Shown: positions 12,767-52,240 of the stretch, piece by piece
How the letters are laid out: each line of letters opens with the position of its first letter
How positions within the stretch are numbered: the first letter of the stretch is position 1
From: an uncultured Gammaproteobacteria bacterium
GTDB lineage: Bacteria; Patescibacteriota; Patescibacteriia; Magasanikbacterales; GWA2-37-8
Direction of reading: 5' to 3'
Length of the DNA: 64,000 bases
NCBI GenBank assembly: GCA_964478235.1
Contig: CAYZGX010000001.1
Coordinates: 42,984-106,983 of the forward strand
Notes under the pieces: generated by a model
Databases searched by the model: none
What the model was told of the DNA's origin: nothing
The model's input: only the letters and a program-made list of their open reading frames with translations
Program-made: the position numbers and the translations under genes

Positions 12767-14167
12767 TTACGCAAACGGCAAATCATCAGGCGCTTCTTCA
12801 TGAGCTGGGGCAGACGGCAAAGGCTCACCCTTTTTACGAAGCGGAATCTCGCTTGTCTCGGTCGGAAGCCCTGCTGGTGGCTCAGATTTCTTGTGCCCAG
12901 CCTTTTGAAGCATCGGGGTCTTCACGAATGGCAATGGGAAGTGCCAAATTGTCGCTAATTCTTCGATATTAAGCACGTACCCGTCACACCCTGCCCATTT
13001 CATCTTACGCCCTTGAAAAGCGCTCATAAAGCTATTTTTGAGGACATTACTCTTCTTATGCTTTGAGTCGTAATGAGCGTGCGTTCCCATGTGTGGAACG
13101 ATAGAGTTGCTGCTCAAAATAGAGAACTGGCCCATCGCCCCAACAAACCCTTCAACACAGCGGTTTGGGCTAAAAACATTCTTCTTGGCAGAATACAACA
13201 GGCGCATTTTAGACTTAAAACCAATCTTAGATAGTTTATCTTCAATAAACTCAATCGTTGTTTTCATACCCGGCGTAAGCGCTTCTGCACTCCCGTGATC
13301 TGCCCCGTGATCGCCGTGCGCCCCTTCAAAGTTCCAGGTAATAATATTACGCAATTCTTGAAGAATAAAATCTGGCACAGCGAGCAGCGCTGCAGCAATA
13401 CCGCCACCATGATGACCGTGGCCACCACCACTCATTAAATCTTTGGCGAGCGCAATCCCCTTTTCTTTCCAACTGTTATCTATTGGTTCAATAATAAGTT
13501 GCATCCAAACATTTTCACCTTTGGCAATGCGAGAGAAGTTTTCCAAAATAGCCGCCATCGGATCGCTAAACACGGCGTCTTTACTCAAATTATATTGAAA
13601 CTCGTCATAGGTGCGGATTGGATATGCATCAGCCGAAGCGAGCTTAAATTCCATACCAAGCAAATCATACTCAGCGTCAGGATATTTGGCAGGAATATTT
13701 GTCACATAGTCTTCCACCTCAGTAATTTGCGCTTCGGTATACTGAGCGTAAATCGCTGCTTCCACCAAATCTTGATATTCTTTTTCAGTCCGAATTAAAA
13801 ACTGAATATATCCCTCAATACTAATAATTTCAAAGCTGAAAGTTTTTTGCTTGTGACCGGTCCAAAATTTAGCTTGAACATCAGCATGACCAAGCGTACC
13901 AGAAATTTGGGCAAAGATCTGCTCCACCGCTTTTGGCGACTGAATAAACATTGGCGGGATATCGACAGCTAGAAGCACCCACTCCCAATGAGCAATACCT
14001 TTTTTAGTACGGTATTCCACCCACATGGCCGCTCCTTTGGTGAACATAAACGAAGCCAACGGCAACCACAAACCAAGCGCAAAAACAACTTTCGCCTGCT
14101 CTAGCAAGGAAAGCCCAAGAAAGGTTGTCCAAAATGACAGATCTATAGTAAGCGTGTCGAAAAACAT
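12767..14167 (-). CDS. Membrane protein paralogous to the N-terminal domain of the T4CP-like ATPase; no ATPase domain; Gly/His-rich segments
   Basis: Blocks shared with 4590..7151: ...SFEII..IQFLI...AQYTEAQITEVEDY vs ISFEIV..ISFYV...AQYPHAEITTETDY, and IEELATIWHFPLP vs TEELASFWHLPLP. The protein ends where the paralog's ATPase begins. Contains GGGHGHHGGG and AHGDHGADHG stretches. Confidence 0.7.
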   Translation of the reverse strand: MFFDTLTIDLSFWTTFLGLSLLEQAKVVFALGLWLPLASFMFTKGAAMWVEYRTKKGIAHWEWVLLAVDIPPMFIQSPKAVEQIFAQISGTLGHADVQAKFWTGHKQKTFSFEIISIEGYIQFLIRTEKEYQDLVEAAIYAQYTEAQITEVEDYVTNIPAKYPDAEYDLLGMEFKLASADAYPIRTYDEFQYNLSKDAVFSDPMAAILENFSRIAKGENVWMQLIIEPIDNSWKEKGIALAKDLMSGGGHGHHGGGIAAALLAVPDFILQELRNIITWNFEGAHGDHGADHGSAEALTPGMKTTIEFIEDKLSKIGFKSKMRLLYSAKKNVFSPNRCVEGFVGAMGQFSILSSNSIVPHMGTHAHYDSKHKKSNVLKNSFMSAFQGRKMKWAGCDGYVLNIEELATIWHFPLPFVKTPMLQKAGHKKSEPPAGLPTETSEIPLRKKGEPLPSAPAHEEAPDDLPFA

Positions 14168-14179
14168 ACCAGTCTAAGA

Positions 14180-14365
14180 CTAATGATGTCCGCCGCCGTG
14201 TCCGCCAGCATCAATAGTTTTGTAAACAAAACCGTAGACAACGAACAGAGCAAAAACTGTCCACCACCAACCGTGGGGTCCGGAAAAATAGCCGGCGGCA
14301 TAGGCCAAACCAGCAATACCAGTGGCCAGTAGCGCCACCAAATGTCGAACAATTGTATCGTTCAT
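14180..14365 (-). CDS. Small two-TM membrane protein with C-terminal GGHGGGHH tail
   Basis: 62 aa from the Met of MNDTIV (cat 14363-14365), with a TATACT -10 box about 20 nt upstream. Two hydrophobic helices. It lies directly upstream of 12767..14167 on the same strand. Confidence 0.5.
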   Translation of the reverse strand: MNDTIVRHLVALLATGIAGLAYAAGYFSGPHGWWWTVFALFVVYGFVYKTIDAGGHGGGHH

Positions 14366-14454
14366 AGGCAAAAATAAGTATGGATAGTATACCACAAGGC
14401 TAGACAAAAAGAAAAACCCCGCCAAGGGCGGGGTTTGAGCGGACGAGCTCGGCT

Positions 14455-15381
14455 TTAGGCCTGAGCACGACGCTCCTGCCAACGCTCCACATATACGAGA
14501 AGCGGACTAGCAATGAAGATAGAAGAATACGTACCACTAGCCATACCCACCAACAAAGCGAGGGCAAAAGCTTTGATAGACTCACCACCAAGGAAGTAGA
14601 GGGCAAACAATGGGAGTAAGACAGTGACCGTAGTGTTAATAGAGCGCATCAACGTTTCATTAAGCGCTAAATCAACAATCGCTGAGAATGTATCAGCAGT
14701 TTTATGCAACACATTTTCACGAATACGGTCATACACCACAATCGTATCAGTCACCGAGAAACCAAGCACTGTCAACAATGCCAAAACAAAGTCAGTCTCA
14801 ATCTCGAGACCGGTAAAATGACCGAGAACAGCAAAAACACCGACCACAATCAGGATATCATGTGCCAAAGCCACAATAGCCAAAGCACCATATTTCCAAC
14901 TAGCAATTGGGCGAGATACTTTGCGGAAAGCGTAGGCGATGTATAAGATGATCGCTAGATTAACAGCAATAATAGCACTCACAGCGCGCTGACGGAGCGT
15001 TTCACTCACTGACGAACCGATAGTTTCCAGGCGTTTTTCAACAAGAGTATTTCCACCAGTAGCGTAGGCATCAGAGAAGGCTTTAAGCACCTTTTGATGC
15101 TGTTCTTCAGTCAAAAAAGTGGTACGGATAATAATATCCGATTCTCCACTACGCTGAACAACTGAATCGCCAGTGACAACTGTTTTAAGTGTTTCTTGCA
15201 CTTGTTCCACCGACGGGCGATTGCTGAAAGACATTTCAATCAAGCTGCCACCAGTGAAGTCAATACCGTATTTAAGGCCCCACTTAGCAATAGCAAGGAT
15301 AGCCACAACGGTCAGTGTACCACTGACTATCAACCAGAACTTTGAATATTTAATGAATGGAATTTTCATATAAAGGGGCAT
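14455..15381 (-). CDS. secF: Protein translocase subunit SecF
   Basis: Typical SecF topology and motifs (DFTGG, VYDRIREN). Confidence 0.9.
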   Translation of the reverse strand: MPLYMKIPFIKYSKFWLIVSGTLTVVAILAIAKWGLKYGIDFTGGSLIEMSFSNRPSVEQVQETLKTVVTGDSVVQRSGESDIIIRTTFLTEEQHQKVLKAFSDAYATGGNTLVEKRLETIGSSVSETLRQRAVSAIIAVNLAIILYIAYAFRKVSRPIASWKYGALAIVALAHDILIVVGVFAVLGHFTGLEIETDFVLALLTVLGFSVTDTIVVYDRIRENVLHKTADTFSAIVDLALNETLMRSINTTVTVLLPLFALYFLGGESIKAFALALLVGMASGTYSSIFIASPLLVYVERWQERRAQA

Positions 15382-17426
15382 TAGGAGCGTTTCGTATAAC
15401 CAAGGAACAACGCGTTAGCTTTGTCATCAAAACGACCAAAGATAAGGCGCATAATCGTGCGGGTCACGGTAATAGCCGAGAACAAACTCATGAGCACACC
15501 TGTCGCGAGCACCACAGCAAAACCTTGGATAAAGCCACCACCAAACCACATGAGCACGATACTACTGATCAAAGTGGTAACGTGACCGTCGCGGATAGAT
15601 GGCCAAGCACGAATAAACGACTCTTCCATCGCACTCTTCAAACTGCGACCATTTTGCAATTCTTCTTTCAAACGCTCAAACACGAGAACGTTCGCATCCA
15701 CCGCCATACCAATAGACAGGATAAACCCGGCAATACCAGCAAGCGTCAAAGTAACACCAAGCACCTTAAACAGCGCCAAAGTAACAAGCGCGTACACAGC
15801 CAGCGAGAAAACAGATAATAAGCCTGGCAAGCGGTAGTAGATAACCATGAATAACATAACCAAGAGAAGACCGGCAACACCAGCTTTAAAGCTTTTTGCC
15901 AAAGAATCCTCACCGAGAGTCGCATCAACTTTTTGCTGACTCAAAAGCTCGACTGGCACAGGAAGTGCACCAGAATTGAGGCGTTGCGACAAAATACGAG
16001 CTTCGTTCAAGGTAAAGTTACCGTTGATAACAGCGCTACCACTGGTAATCGGCTCATTAACCCGAGGAATACTGATTGCTTCGTTATCAAGGAAAATAGC
16101 GACTTCTTTGCCAGAATTACGAGTAGTAATGTCGGCAAACAGTTTTGTACCTTCGTCATCAAACTGAAGGCTCACCTGTACCTGGCCAGTCATACTATCC
16201 TGAGTCACCTCAGCGCGTTTCAATTGCTTACCAGACAAGCCAGTCGTCTTCCAAGGCTCTTGCGGAGGCAAGATATCGGTTTTGTCTTGTGTCTTCAAGA
16301 AAACACGAGCCAAATGATATTGTTTTGGGGTTTCCTGAGCTTTCTTATAGATCAAATGGTACCCGAACTCAGTTTCCACCGGACCAATGATGGTGCCAGC
16401 TTTAGCATCCCAGATAGCATCGGTGAACGCTTTCACCATTGTATCCTTGGTAAAGGTGCCCAAATCGCCAGCTCGGTCAGCTGCACCAGGTTCGGTAGAG
16501 TTTTGCTTCACCAATGTAGCGAAGTTGTAAATAGTTGCTTGTTTTTTGAGGTCATTAATTTTTGCCAACGCCTGTTCTTTGGAATAGATAGGGCTGTCAC
16601 AACGAGAAGCACCAGTATAGCAGATAAGTAAATGGGAGGCGGTGACTTGTTTTTCACCATCGCGCTCAGCTACTTTCTTCAAAATATTATAACCAGAGGC
16701 AGTCTTTACCAAATCGCGACCAACTTCACCAACTCGGCGAGTTTTAGCCCAAGTAAAGAATTCTGGATAAGAGGCTTGAGAAATAAAACCCATATCACCA
16801 CCGGTACTAGTGGTGGTGTCGTCACTATATTTCACGACAACATCTTCAAACTTTCCACCACGACGAAGAGCGGTGAGAGCTTCGTTAGCTTCTTTCAAGA
16901 CACCAGCATTAAAAGTGTCCATTTGTTTCTTTTCAACCGCAGTCAAATCACGAGCTGGCTCATTGTTAGCTTCTTTAAATTCCAAAATTGGTGTCTGACC
17001 AATCATGGTAATAGCCTGGTTCACATCAGTCACACCTGGCAATTCCACAATAATGCGGTAATCGCTACCAACACGGGTAGTTTGTACAATCGGCTCAGCT
17101 ACGCCAAGACCACCGCGAACACGGCGTTCAATAACATCACGAACACCTTCCACCGAGCTAGCTCGGTCAGCATCAGGAATACTGTCGGTTTTTGCTTGGT
17201 AAATCAAATGCGCCCCGCCTTGAAGATCAAGACCGAGGTTAAAACCACTCTCTGAGAGAGTTGGGATACCAATATTAGTCGACTGATTAATCGCGTTAAT
17301 ACCACGATTGATCTGTTTTGGGGCAATAACCACCAAACAAATAATGGACAACGCTACAATCGCAATAAACTTATTGCGCACCTGTTCACGACTTTCCCCC
17401 CTCGTTACCGGTGTTTTTTGAGCCAT
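15381..17426 (-). CDS. secD: Protein translocase subunit SecD with inserted PpiC/parvulin-type PPIase domain
   Basis: SecD TM bundle with the C-terminal GMAVDANVLVFER motif. The periplasmic region contains ASHLLI...GDLGTFTKDTMVKAF...FGYHLIYKK, the parvulin signature (compare E. coli PpiC). Confidence 0.85.
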   Translation of the reverse strand: MAQKTPVTRGESREQVRNKFIAIVALSIICLVVIAPKQINRGINAINQSTNIGIPTLSESGFNLGLDLQGGAHLIYQAKTDSIPDADRASSVEGVRDVIERRVRGGLGVAEPIVQTTRVGSDYRIIVELPGVTDVNQAITMIGQTPILEFKEANNEPARDLTAVEKKQMDTFNAGVLKEANEALTALRRGGKFEDVVVKYSDDTTTSTGGDMGFISQASYPEFFTWAKTRRVGEVGRDLVKTASGYNILKKVAERDGEKQVTASHLLICYTGASRCDSPIYSKEQALAKINDLKKQATIYNFATLVKQNSTEPGAADRAGDLGTFTKDTMVKAFTDAIWDAKAGTIIGPVETEFGYHLIYKKAQETPKQYHLARVFLKTQDKTDILPPQEPWKTTGLSGKQLKRAEVTQDSMTGQVQVSLQFDDEGTKLFADITTRNSGKEVAIFLDNEAISIPRVNEPITSGSAVINGNFTLNEARILSQRLNSGALPVPVELLSQQKVDATLGEDSLAKSFKAGVAGLLLVMLFMVIYYRLPGLLSVFSLAVYALVTLALFKVLGVTLTLAGIAGFILSIGMAVDANVLVFERLKEELQNGRSLKSAMEESFIRAWPSIRDGHVTTLISSIVLMWFGGGFIQGFAVVLATGVLMSLFSAITVTRTIMRLIFGRFDDKANALFLGYTKRS

Positions 17427-17555
17427 AAATAAGACAAGATTAAAGTGCGGGGATTTTAGCGCATTTCAACCATCTTGGCAAGTGGACAAGACCAGTAAAA
17501 AAGACTGATGTGTAAGCCAAAAAAATAACCCTCAGAGAGGGTTATTTTGTAGCAC

Positions 17556-20336
17556 TTATGCACCGTGGCACTTCTTGTACTTCTTACCACTACCACAATA
17601 ACATGGTTCATTGCGCCCAACTTCTTTAGCGCCTTGCGCAGGGCCAACAGCGGATTGCTGAGCAGGTGCTTCTTCTTTTTGAGCGCCCTGTAAAATAACA
17701 TTACCACTTTCCATTACACTCGGCGCCATCTGAATACCAATGCTGAGTTTGTAGATAGAGTAAACGACTTCTTTTTGAATCGCGCTCAATAACTCGCTAA
17801 ACATACGGTAGGTTTCGCGCTTATATTCCACCAATGGATCTCTTTGACCGTAGCCACGAAGACCGATACCGGTGCGAAGATAATCAATCGATACTAAATG
17901 TTCCACCCACAAATTATCAATACTACGGAGCAACATTTGTTTTTCAATTTCCAATATCACCTGAGCATGATGGGCTTTTTGCACCAACATCGTATCATAT
18001 TTTTCATGCGCCATCTTAATAATTTCCTCGGCGAGCGACTCGCGGAATTCAACTGCTTCCATTTTTTGAGTGCCCGTGTCAGTGTGCGCTTTAATTTTTT
18101 CTTTTTCCAAAGCTGACAACGGGAAAATAGTTTCTAGCGTAGAGATGATATCGTCCAAATTCCAACTCGAACGATCTTCAGCGTTGGTATGGTACGACAC
18201 AATTTGCTCAATTTCCGCATCAATCATTTCAAAAACCATTGCTCGAAGTGTTGGACGAGTAACTTCGCTTACCGCTTGAGGCAATGTATAGCTCGGATCA
18301 AGTGCTTTTTTCTCAGTTGCAAAACTTTCAAGCACCGCTCGGCGTTTACCATACACTACTTCACGATGACGATTGATAATATCATCATATTCAAGCAGAT
18401 GTTTACGGGTGTCAAAATGGAAACCTTCCACTTTCTTTTGAGCCGACTCAATAATTCGGGTAATAGACTTCTGCTCAATTGGCATATCATCTGGAATCTT
18501 GAGCATTTGCATCGCTTTTTTAATACGCTCACCTGCAAAAATACGCATTAAATCATCGTCAGTCGACAAATAGAACTGCGTTTCACCAGGATCACCCTGA
18601 CGACCAGCGCGACCGCGGAGCTGGTTATCAATACGACGAGATTCGTGACGTTCAGTACCAATCACAAACAAACCACCAAACGAGCGAACTTTTTCAGCCT
18701 GATCTTTATCTGGCGGGTTACCGCCGAGGATAATATCCACACCACGACCAGCCATATTGGTCGCAATCGTCACAGCGCCTTCACGACCAGCTTGCGCCAC
18801 AATTTCACCTTCACGTTCGTGGTTTTTAGCGTTCAAAATTTCATGTTTAATACCTTCAAGCTCAAGATGTCGACTGAGTAATTCATTTTTCTCCACAGAA
18901 ATAGTACCGATGAGAACCGGCTGACCTTTTTCTTGGAGCGCGCGAACAGTCTTCGCAATCGCCTGATATTTGGCCGCTTCATTTTTATAAATTCTATCAG
19001 GATGGTCAGTGCGTTGCGCCTTGCGGTTGGTAGGAATCACCACAACTTCCAATTTATAAATCTTCCCAAGCTCTTCCGCTTCGGTCACCGCCGTACCAGT
19101 CATACCAGACAATTTGGTGTACATGCGGAAATAATTTTGGAAGGTGACTGTCGCCATGGTCTGGCTTTCGCGCTGAATAGCCACTTTTTCTTTGGCTTCA
19201 ATCGCCTGATGTAACCCTTCGTTATAGCGACGACCCGGCATTTTGCGACCGGTAAATTCATCAACAATAATCACTTCCCCACCCTCAACCACATAGTCAC
19301 GATCACGCTTAAACAAAGCCTTGGCTCGAAGCGCCTGCTCCATATGATGAACCATGGACATTCCGCCTTCAGCATAGATATTTTCAATACCAAGCCAACC
19401 CTCCATTTTATGAAGACCGGCATCAGTCATGGTAGCTGAACGCATTTTTTCATCCACTGCAAAATCATCATGCTCAGTTAATTTTTCTACCAAGTCAGCA
19501 AACTTATAATAAATATCTGCTGCTTTTTCAGCTGGTGCCGAAATAATAAGCGGAGTACGGGCCTCATCGATCAAGATAGAGTCAACTTCGTCAACCACGG
19601 CAAAGTTAAGACCGCGCTGCACCATACTCTCCAAATCCTGCACCATGTTGTCGCGGAGGTAATCAAAACCAAATTCATTGTTCGTGCCGTACACGATATC
19701 GCACTTATACGCATCTTGGCGCGTACAGGACACGAGATATTCATATTCTACTTTATAGGCTCCTTTTTCATCACGCTCTTTATCAGCTTTTCCACCCTCA
19801 GCAACATCTTTAGTTTCTGGAGCTTCTGGAGTCACGTGCGGACTATAGCGATACGATACTGTTTGATTTTGAATAATACCGACAGTAAGACCAAGGAAAT
19901 CATAAATCTGCCCCATCCACACAGCGTCACGTTTTGCCAAATAATCATTCACGGTCACCACGTGTACACCTTTACCAGTGAGCGCGTTCAAATAGGTTGG
20001 AAGCGTCGCCACCAAAGTCTTACCTTCACCAGTGCGCATTTCAGCCACCGATCCACGATGAAGCACCACGCCACCAATAAGCTGAGCATCAAAATGACGC
20101 ATCCCGGTCAAACGACGAGATGTTTCACGAACCACAGCAAACGCTTCTGGCAAAACCGCATCAACCGTTTCGCCCTTGGCCAACCGCTCTTTGAGCGTGC
20201 CAGTTTTTGCTTTTAATTGTGTGTCCGACAAAACTCGCATCTCTTCTTCGAGCGCGTTAATCGCTTCAACAATTGGTTGAATACCTTTGAGGACTTTGGC
20301 GTTAGGATCGCCGAATAATTTCGTCAAAAAACCCAT
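17556..20336 (-). CDS. secA: Preprotein translocase ATPase SecA
   Basis: MGFLTKLFGDPN start. DEAD-like motor motifs. C-terminal zinc finger CYCGSGKKYKKCHG. Confidence 0.95.
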   Translation of the reverse strand: MGFLTKLFGDPNAKVLKGIQPIVEAINALEEEMRVLSDTQLKAKTGTLKERLAKGETVDAVLPEAFAVVRETSRRLTGMRHFDAQLIGGVVLHRGSVAEMRTGEGKTLVATLPTYLNALTGKGVHVVTVNDYLAKRDAVWMGQIYDFLGLTVGIIQNQTVSYRYSPHVTPEAPETKDVAEGGKADKERDEKGAYKVEYEYLVSCTRQDAYKCDIVYGTNNEFGFDYLRDNMVQDLESMVQRGLNFAVVDEVDSILIDEARTPLIISAPAEKAADIYYKFADLVEKLTEHDDFAVDEKMRSATMTDAGLHKMEGWLGIENIYAEGGMSMVHHMEQALRAKALFKRDRDYVVEGGEVIIVDEFTGRKMPGRRYNEGLHQAIEAKEKVAIQRESQTMATVTFQNYFRMYTKLSGMTGTAVTEAEELGKIYKLEVVVIPTNRKAQRTDHPDRIYKNEAAKYQAIAKTVRALQEKGQPVLIGTISVEKNELLSRHLELEGIKHEILNAKNHEREGEIVAQAGREGAVTIATNMAGRGVDIILGGNPPDKDQAEKVRSFGGLFVIGTERHESRRIDNQLRGRAGRQGDPGETQFYLSTDDDLMRIFAGERIKKAMQMLKIPDDMPIEQKSITRIIESAQKKVEGFHFDTRKHLLEYDDIINRHREVVYGKRRAVLESFATEKKALDPSYTLPQAVSEVTRPTLRAMVFEMIDAEIEQIVSYHTNAEDRSSWNLDDIISTLETIFPLSALEKEKIKAHTDTGTQKMEAVEFRESLAEEIIKMAHEKYDTMLVQKAHHAQVILEIEKQMLLRSIDNLWVEHLVSIDYLRTGIGLRGYGQRDPLVEYKRETYRMFSELLSAIQKEVVYSIYKLSIGIQMAPSVMESGNVILQGAQKEEAPAQQSAVGPAQGAKEVGRNEPCYCGSGKKYKKCHGA

Positions 20337-52008: not shown

Positions 52009-52240
52009 ACGAATATATTTTTTTACTGTCGAGAGTAAGCTCCCAAGCAATAAAAAAATCTGTGTTATGCCACAGACTAGAATTCCACGTAATCTCGACC
52101 TGAGTGTGCCATTCCTCTAATGAGGAAAAAACACGGGCGATTACCTCGGTAGGATATTTAAGAGAGCCTTGCGAGCTCCCACCTACTGTCTATGGTGTAG
52201 ACACATACTACTAAAAAGACCGGGCTTTGTCAAGACGACT
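52009..52240 (-). promoter_or_regulatory. rplJ promoter and long 5' leader (candidate L10 autoregulatory leader)
   Basis: Minus-strand TTGACA-17-TAGTAT promoter near 52207-52240, about 185 nt upstream of the rplJ ATG. Bacterial rplJ leaders commonly carry the L10(L12)4 binding structure. Confidence 0.35.

Follow-up and report, generated by a model that had tools for sequence, protein, structure and literature searches.

A SecD protein of the Patescibacteria with a pair of parvulin modules inserted between the base and the head of its P1 domain

The 64,000-nt stretch of DNA analyzed here (the window; GenBank assembly GCA_964478235.1, contig CAYZGX010000001.1, positions 42,984 to 106,983) encodes a SecD protein whose large extracytoplasmic P1 domain is interrupted by two consecutive modules related to the parvulins, a family of PPIases (peptidyl-prolyl cis/trans isomerases). 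The first module (D1) is degenerate and the second (D2) is a complete parvulin domain. The architecture, its conservation, the purifying selection acting on it and the retention of the active-site residues were shown by the analysis. We consider it rather probable that the gene, of Magasanikbacteria-like type, encodes a functional SecD of the proton-driven SecDF motor, the P1 arm of which bears a rigid parvulin pair with D2 acting as the isomerase and D1 as a binding module.

The protein as a whole matched the NCBIfam model TIGR01129 (377.4 bits, cutoff 244.4), its SecD_1st, SecDF_P1_head and SecD_SecF_C matches all exceeded the Pfam gathering thresholds, and the Sec_GG motif was found at residues 61–80. 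The closest entries of the Protein Data Bank (PDB), by sequence and fold alike, were the SecDF structures 3aqp, 5xan and 5yhf. The hydrophobic segments (residues 15–41, 509–583 and 622–656) and the helices of the AlphaFold2 (AF2) model (13–34, 506–556, 562–591, 596–628 and 631–663) agree with the expected topology of one transmembrane (TM) helix, a large P1 loop and five further TM helices, and the predicted extracytoplasmic orientation of the loop follows from homology. The N-terminal P1-base segment showed a mean identity of 82% among 59 homologues. In the alignment the TM4 motif GMAVDANVLVFERLKEEL paired with GAAVDGNVLSFERIKEEL of Thermus thermophilus SecDF, and the proton-pathway residue Asp577, which sits in GMAVDANVLVFERLKEE, was kept in all 77 alignable related genomes. 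Since the TM4 proton-pathway motif is intact and conserved, the SecD portion looks like a working motor subunit, predicted to take part in export driven by the proton-motive force.

The initial annotation, made from the nucleotide sequence, had proposed that a PpiC-type parvulin domain is embedded in this SecD and flanked by normal SecD sequence. Both statements were borne out, the latter by the TIGR01129 match (377 bits), the conserved Asp577 and the adjacent secF, and the former by the Rotamase_3 match at residues 246–360 (E = 4.2e-31, 108 bits, cutoff 22.5) together with the Rotamase match in the insert (99 bits, E = 3.1e-28), both far above the Pfam cutoffs. The motifs quoted in its support, VTASHLLICY (with His265), GDLGTF (residues 320–325) and FGYHLIYKK (with His357), are indeed present. 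Two details had to be corrected. The parvulin had been placed inside the P1 head, whereas the insert actually follows the N-terminal P1-base segment and precedes the head: residues 31–119 of T. thermophilus SecDF (PDB 3AQP) paired with residues 60–154 of the window protein and residues 147–426 with 383–663. These alignment boundaries leave approximately 200 extra residues in place of approximately 28, and the P1 head profile match starts only at profile position 17. Moreover, a single domain had been described, whereas the insert contains two modules, as fragment 155–257 by itself gave a Rotamase match of 42.9 bits over residues 164–250 (cutoff 21.7), which corresponds to a further, degenerate module at approximately 160–258. 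The Pfam scan for a rotamase domain thus found one, in a region that is not ordinary P1 sequence. Structure prediction of the insert alone returned a mean predicted local distance difference test (pLDDT) score of 92.3 and a predicted template modeling (pTM) score of 0.73, and in the full-length AF2 model the pLDDT exceeded 90 throughout the insert. A survey of SecD architectures in relatives revealed the parvulin insert to be widespread in Patescibacteria and not peculiar to the source genome. The initial annotation had also suggested that the insert may make up for absent periplasmic chaperones such as PrsA or SurA in a reduced genome; no other parvulin was detected within the 64-kb window, a result that applies to this stretch only.

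Residue conservation was counted in 80 species-level genomes, which were the best 80 of at least 561 relatives and are biased toward the window's own type. Both histidines of the dual-histidine motif of D2, His265 and His357, were present in every one of the 80. The proline pocket was equally well preserved, with Leu322 and Phe334 in 80 and Met330 in 75 genomes (the equivalents of Pin1 L122, F134 and M130), and so was Phe354, the equivalent of Pin1 S154 (76 genomes). Position 312, which corresponds to Pin1 C113, Par10 C40 and the Asp of SurA P2, was occupied by Glu in 48 genomes and by Asp in 32; it is Glu in the window SecD and Cys in one relative (P0170). The same pattern recurred in 60 closer homologues, in which these positions were invariant or conservatively exchanged (Glu/Asp at 312). 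With a parvulin profile score above the gathering threshold and a parvulin fold, D2 is, to judge from its residues, probably an active PPIase. Cys269 and Cys276 of D2 were also invariant (80/80 each) and may form an extracytoplasmic disulfide.

The D1 module departs from this picture. Its Pfam coverage begins at profile position 6–37, so that the N-terminal strand β1 is missing, and residues 178–256 align to residues 16–92 of the Bacillus subtilis PrsA PPIase domain and also to SurA P1. The equivalent of the β4 histidine is Asn247, a position held by Asn or Ser in 58 of 60 homologues and by Asn, Glu, His, Ser and other residues in the 80 genomes. The equivalent of the β1 histidine (position 371, in a strand named β1b that follows D2) varies among homologues and genomes alike. 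Hence, D1 has neither the dual-histidine motif nor the canonical strand order; it is parvulin-like in fold and descent, and enzymatic activity is not expected of it.

The arrangement of the two modules became clearer from shorter SecD proteins of approximately 560–620 residues in which this site holds one parvulin (P0131, P0137, P0139, P0149, P0151 and P0157). Their parvulin runs from α1 to FGYHIIKK, followed by a loop and then by ..ASHILFKT, and, because the His-bearing β1 comes after β4, it is circularly permuted. When the permutation was reverted in silico, the Rotamase_3 score rose from 101.4 to 112.8 bits for P0131 (profile coverage extended from 29–115 to 14–115) and from 99.2 to 105.8 bits for P0149 (from 28–115 to 15–115). 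These single permuted parvulins look catalytically complete. P0137 contains a low-complexity insertion of approximately 50 residues within the β4–β1 loop, and the loop, which would be the site of D2, therefore tolerates insertions.

The window insert can be read as two such permuted-type units in tandem, α1–β4a (160–256) with β1a (260–268) and α1–β4b (283–365) with β1b (368–378), a layout with which the AF2 secondary structure agrees. The position of β1b matches that of the C-terminal ..ASHILFKT strand of the permuted single-parvulin proteins, and β1b would complete the D1 sheet. The most likely origin of the pair is that a permuted parvulin, which SecD of related lineages already had, was duplicated in tandem. 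In the resulting protein a canonical D2, formed by β1a with β4b, appears to be nested in a permuted D1, formed by β4a with β1b. Nesting is favored since the conserved histidines lie on β1a and β4b, the equivalents on β4a and β1b being both degenerate, and since whole parvulin domains superpose on the model near-completely and in order. Two permuted domains lying side by side were considered as well and are disfavored by the same histidine co-conservation and superposition.

The 120 best homologues (62–96% identity, approximately 680–700 residues) all had the same set of Rotamase and SecD domains, and the named ones belonged to Candidatus Magasanikbacteria or Patescibacteria. Wider sampling was achieved by scanning the 150 best representatives of 50%-identity clusters with hidden Markov models built from the window family. 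In 71 of the 150, a parvulin-like match separated the base segment from the head, and Pfam confirmed the parvulin in nine of ten picked representatives. The parvulin-bearing proteins fell into size classes of approximately 560–620 residues (single permuted parvulin), 680 residues (D1 and D2), 775–810 residues (extra sequence around the parvulin) and 1015–1100 residues (SecD–SecF fusions). A scan of one genome per species of the Genome Taxonomy Database (GTDB), with five closer sequences as the query and thus biased toward the window's type, detected at least 561 genome stretches encoding relatives. In the best 80 loci, D2, the linker and the head were fully covered, and D1, D2 and the head lay in one open reading frame (ORF) in all 80. 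The record titles among the scan matches listed included Magasanikbacteria, Uhrbacteria, Falkowbacteria, Nomurabacteria, Paceibacter and the Parcubacteria/Patescibacteria group. What a profile search with a diverse alignment of 19 sequences brought up was for the most part fragments, along with multi-parvulin proteins that stand alone.

The proteins of the SecDF-fusion class come from Candidatus Peregrinibacteria/Gracilibacteria, and 118 of the 120 best members carried a parvulin. Approximately 110 residues preceding D2 in these fusions matched the D1 profile (hhalign probability 92%, E = 5e-7) and represent a D1 remnant. Since the pair occurs in both the Magasanik-type and the Peregrini/Gracili-type proteins, it either was present before at least two deep lineages of Patescibacteria diverged or spread between them. 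On these comparisons, the presence of a parvulin in SecD is an old and widespread trait of the Patescibacteria. Two fusions of the Peregrinibacteria type, P0412 (962 residues) and P0416 (978 residues), had no Rotamase Pfam match, which may reflect secondary loss. Other proteins (P0143, P0225, P0231, P0247 and others) contain non-parvulin inserts of 90–190 residues at the same base/head junction, among which that of P0225 gave no extra Pfam match; the junction looks like a hot spot for insertions. Many loci from 'binchicken' third-party-annotation metagenome-assembled genomes (MAGs) labeled 'uncultured Gammaproteobacteria bacterium' (L001, L004–L006, L010, L013 and many others) encode a SecD of the Patescibacteria type that bears the nested pair of parvulins and is 51–68% identical to that of the window, and the label was probably entered as a placeholder or by mistake.

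A gene 96% identical to the window secD was found, with the same neighbors, in three independent metagenome assemblies of the Joint Genome Institute (JGI). The ratio of nonsynonymous to synonymous substitution rates (dN/dS) against this copy was 0.039 for D1, 0.034 for D2, 0.026 for the P1 head and 0.040 for TM2–TM6, the range for SecD outside the parvulin modules being 0.026–0.044. With values of approximately 0.04, D1 and D2 are maintained by purifying selection as strongly as the motor itself.

The insert was compared with known parvulin systems of the Sec pathway. Of the two tandem parvulin domains of SurA, P1 is inactive and P2 is active. The SecD insert likewise has the degenerate module first and the active-looking one second, and residues 178–359 of Escherichia coli SurA (P1 and P2; PDB 1M5Y) are colinear with residues 179–360 of the window protein (E of approximately 1e-15). 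In contrast to SurA, the window SecD lacks the N- and C-terminal chaperone core (no SurA_N-type Pfam match was obtained), the NCBIfam SurA model NF008038 gives it 72.7 bits (cutoff 394), and its first module is devoid of the N-terminal strand. The host lineage is regarded as lacking an outer membrane, and delivery of outer membrane proteins is therefore not the job of the SecD insert. The resemblance to SurA may simply come from two matches of a generic parvulin kind, without common descent. E. coli PpiD–YfgM (PDB 8ZHT), to which a weak fold match was found, also places a parvulin chaperone at the translocon exit, where it is reported to contact SecD, but PpiD stands apart as a protein that has a TM anchor and chaperone domains of its own, whereas the window parvulins belong to the SecD polypeptide.

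The PrsA protein of Firmicutes and the 'dome' lipoproteins Mdp444, Mdp436 and Mdp489 of Mycoplasma pneumoniae are extracellular parvulin foldases for Sec substrates in hosts that are monoderm or genome-reduced, and the PPIase domain of PrsA aligns to both D1 and D2. Unlike the insert, they are separate lipoproteins with SurA/trigger-factor-like chaperone domains, and the NCBIfam PrsA models score the window SecD at 62–68 bits (cutoffs 343–361). The window protein is not a member of the PrsA or PpiD families, its parvulins being flanked by SecD P1 sequence and not by chaperone domains. Canonical SecDF, represented by the T. thermophilus protein (PDB 3AQP/5XAN/5YHF), shares TM1, the P1 base, the P1 head, TM2–TM6, the TM4 Asp and the SecF partner, and differs in having the short base–head connection of approximately 28 residues where the window SecD has approximately 200 residues with two parvulins.

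According to the published model of SecDF action, the P1 head uses its amphiphilic cavity to capture the chain as it emerges from SecYEG, and proton flow drives the F/I swing (PMC5974789). Several parvulin chaperones have been connected with this motor. PpiD contacts SecD's periplasmic domain and cooperates with SecDF (PMC9643414), SurA, which binds the holo-translocon, has its P1 and P2 parvulin domains placed by AlphaFold on the P1 head of SecDF (PMC9987972), and in M. pneumoniae the PrsA-like PPIC lipoproteins form a chamber over SecDF/SecYEG with Mdp444 located above SecYEG and crosslinked to SecDF (bioRxiv 10.1101/2025.04.25.650208, 10.1101/2024.09.05.611430). The initial annotation placed a foldase at the exit of the translocon, and this can reasonably be proposed because it fits the published PpiD–SecD, SurA–SecDF and Mycoplasma PrsA-like/SecDF contacts.

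By analogy with these systems, the insert most likely works as a foldase/chaperone that moves along with the mobile P1 arm, and the fusion is most simply read as a covalent form of the PpiD-, SurA- or PrsA-like partnership with SecDF. The P1 head would capture the chain leaving SecYEG and then swing, and the attached parvulin pair would bind the same unfolded chain. D1 would provide a surface for binding, in the way that SurA P1 or the PpiD parvulin does, and D2 would catalyze prolyl cis/trans isomerization of the chain held by the head. Folding help could thereby be given at the point of release, and a separate partner of the PrsA, PpiD or SurA type need not dock. The strand assignment of D1, the catalysis by D2 and the coupling to P1 movement are what we infer here from the observed features.

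Several points weigh against this proposal. Many parvulin domains of Sec-associated chaperones, such as PpiD and SurA P1, are catalytically dead or dispensable. D2 has Glu at the catalytic Cys/Asp position, and no assay of a Glu variant was found in the literature. The nested strand assignment is derived from residue co-conservation and fold-search coverage and not from coordinates, and the pTM of the full-length AF2 model is 0.39, too low to place the pair with respect to head, base and SecYEG. The dN/dS values come from a single pair of sequences, with dS near saturation (1.37) in D2. In general, the support consists of sequence comparison and predicted models.

In the strongest alternative, the pair is a non-catalytic holdase extension of the P1 head that enlarges the capture surface and the isomerase chemistry is irrelevant. 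The loss of both D1 histidines and the alternation of Glu and Asp at the acidic catalytic position would suit such a role. It would also suit that the PpiD parvulin is not known to have PPIase activity and that the chaperone function of SurA is not known to require its PPIase domains. The functional importance of the PpiD parvulin domain has been questioned (PMC9643414). Against it stands the retention of His265, His357, Leu322 and Phe334 in all 80 genomes, with Met330 in 75, Phe354 in 76 and an acid always at 312; this conservation pattern argues for D2 as a maintained active site rather than a generic binding surface, and we regard the holdase alternative as unlikely, though deserving attention. 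More improbable still is a mainly structural role, with the insert as a spacer or docking module that, in the unusual envelope of the Patescibacteria, positions the P1 head with respect to the cell wall/S-layer or to partners such as YidC or SecYEG. The non-parvulin inserts of 90–190 residues at the same site (for example in P0143, P0225 and P0247) indicate that the site tolerates bulk, and prediction makes the insert a rigid unit (pTM 0.73), but a spacer would leave unexplained both the invariance of the parvulin active site and the recurrence of the same enzyme family in several architectures. An artefact, either an assembly chimera or a frameshift fusion with a neighboring PPIase gene, is refuted by the single uninterrupted frame with normal SecD sequence on either side, the 96%-identical gene with conserved synteny in three assemblies, the homologues in hundreds of MAGs and the dN/dS of 0.04, and deserves practically no credence.

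All components of the fusion are known, and the domain combination is already visible in precomputed Pfam annotations. A full-text literature search, with most subscription journals outside its coverage, found no paper describing either a SecD–parvulin fusion or a circularly permuted parvulin. With its permuted and nested strand order, the pair appears to represent a form of this small enzyme fold that has not been described. A broader proposal, which we put forward tentatively and with more doubt than the reading of the window protein itself, is that SecD carries a permuted parvulin in much of the Patescibacteria, duplicated to a nested pair in the Magasanik/Uhr/Falkow and Peregrini/Gracili groups and coupled to the P1 swing, the chain being handed to SecD's own isomerase.

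How proteins leaving SecYEG are handed over to extracytoplasmic folding factors is still unclear, and the evidence for the PpiD–SecD, SurA–SecDF and Mycoplasma dome–SecDF contacts is recent and in part consists of models or crosslinks. The conserved fusion that ties the parvulin modules covalently to the mobile P1 arm adds independent evidence, from evolution, that the export and parvulin activities belong together. If the proposal is true, the fusion would be a natural 'Rosetta stone' backing the debated SecDF–parvulin hand-off (PpiD, SurA, the PrsA-like dome) as general and ancient. The fusion is relevant to the fields of protein export and of the candidate phyla radiation, since it offers one polypeptide in which the hand-off can be approached structurally and adds a candidate lineage-typical trait to the poorly understood envelope biology of the Patescibacteria.

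The features of the locus are collected in Table 1. The secD stop codon and the secF ATG overlap by 1 nt (TAATG). In the secA–secD gap, a GC-containing hairpin of 10 bp followed by a T-run lies directly after the secA stop codon, and transcription of secD–secF may therefore be separate from that of secA. The secA–secD spacer is approximately 130 nt long in the window and approximately 400 nt in the 96%-identical relative. The order shared with the relatives is MFS, secA, secD, secF, a small ORF, DUF8128, dus, folD and terC.

Table 1. Features of the secA–secD–secF locus and of the SecD protein (positions in the window; aa, SecD residues; Tth, T. thermophilus)
Feature	Position	Strand	Basis
secD coding sequence, 681 aa + stop	15381..17426	-	ORF list; TIGR01129; Pfam SecD_1st, P1_head, SecD_SecF_C
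TM1 of SecD, aa ~15–41	17304..17384	-	hydrophobic segment 15–41; AF2 helix 13–34
N-terminal P1-base segment, aa 60–154 (GG motif + SecD_1st)	16965..17249	-	Sec_GG 61–80, SecD_1st 93–154; Tth SecDF 31–119
D1, degenerate parvulin-like module without N-terminal β1, aa 160–258	16653..16949	-	Pfam Rotamase; PrsA and SurA P1 alignments
D2, complete canonical parvulin PPIase domain, aa 259–366	16329..16652	-	
Strand β1b (aa 368–378, KQYHLARVFLK) and linker into P1 head	16251..16328	-	AF2 strand directly after D2 β4
P1 head subdomain, aa 393–490	15957..16250	-	SecDF_P1_head 98.8 bits, profile positions 17–114; Tth SecDF from residue 147
TM2–TM6, aa 495–663, with TM4 Asp577	15438..15944	-	Pfam SecD_SecF_C 492–661
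secF	14455..15381	-	TIGR00966 279 bits (cutoff 160); start overlaps secD stop
secA, directly upstream of secD	17556..20336	-	ORF translation; SecA Pfam domains at homologous locus
Terminator-like hairpin AATAACCCTC / GAGGGTTATT + T-run, secA–secD gap	17519..17546	-	read from sequence

Downstream of secF, a protein of 466 residues (12767–14167, minus strand) had no Pfam match in the scan, and its syntenic counterpart of 465 residues carries a DUF8128 annotation. It contains the Gly/His-rich stretches GGGHGHHGGG and GAHGDHGADHGS. The adjoining small hydrophobic ORF (14180–14482, minus strand) ends in a C-terminal GGHGGGHH, and the two keep their position after secF in the three related assemblies; the pair may be metal-binding or envelope-related. 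Elsewhere in the window, the Rfam ribosomal protein L10 leader was matched barely above the gathering threshold at 52044–52213 on the minus strand (46.9 bits against 44), and a cluster of tRNA genes (Tyr, Thr, Thr, Trp) was located at 33.6–35.1 kb. The GC skew was negative in 31 of the 32 2-kb segments (cumulative value -3.97) and the long ORFs lie mostly on the minus strand; the whole 64 kb is probably situated on one replichore with its genes co-oriented with replication.

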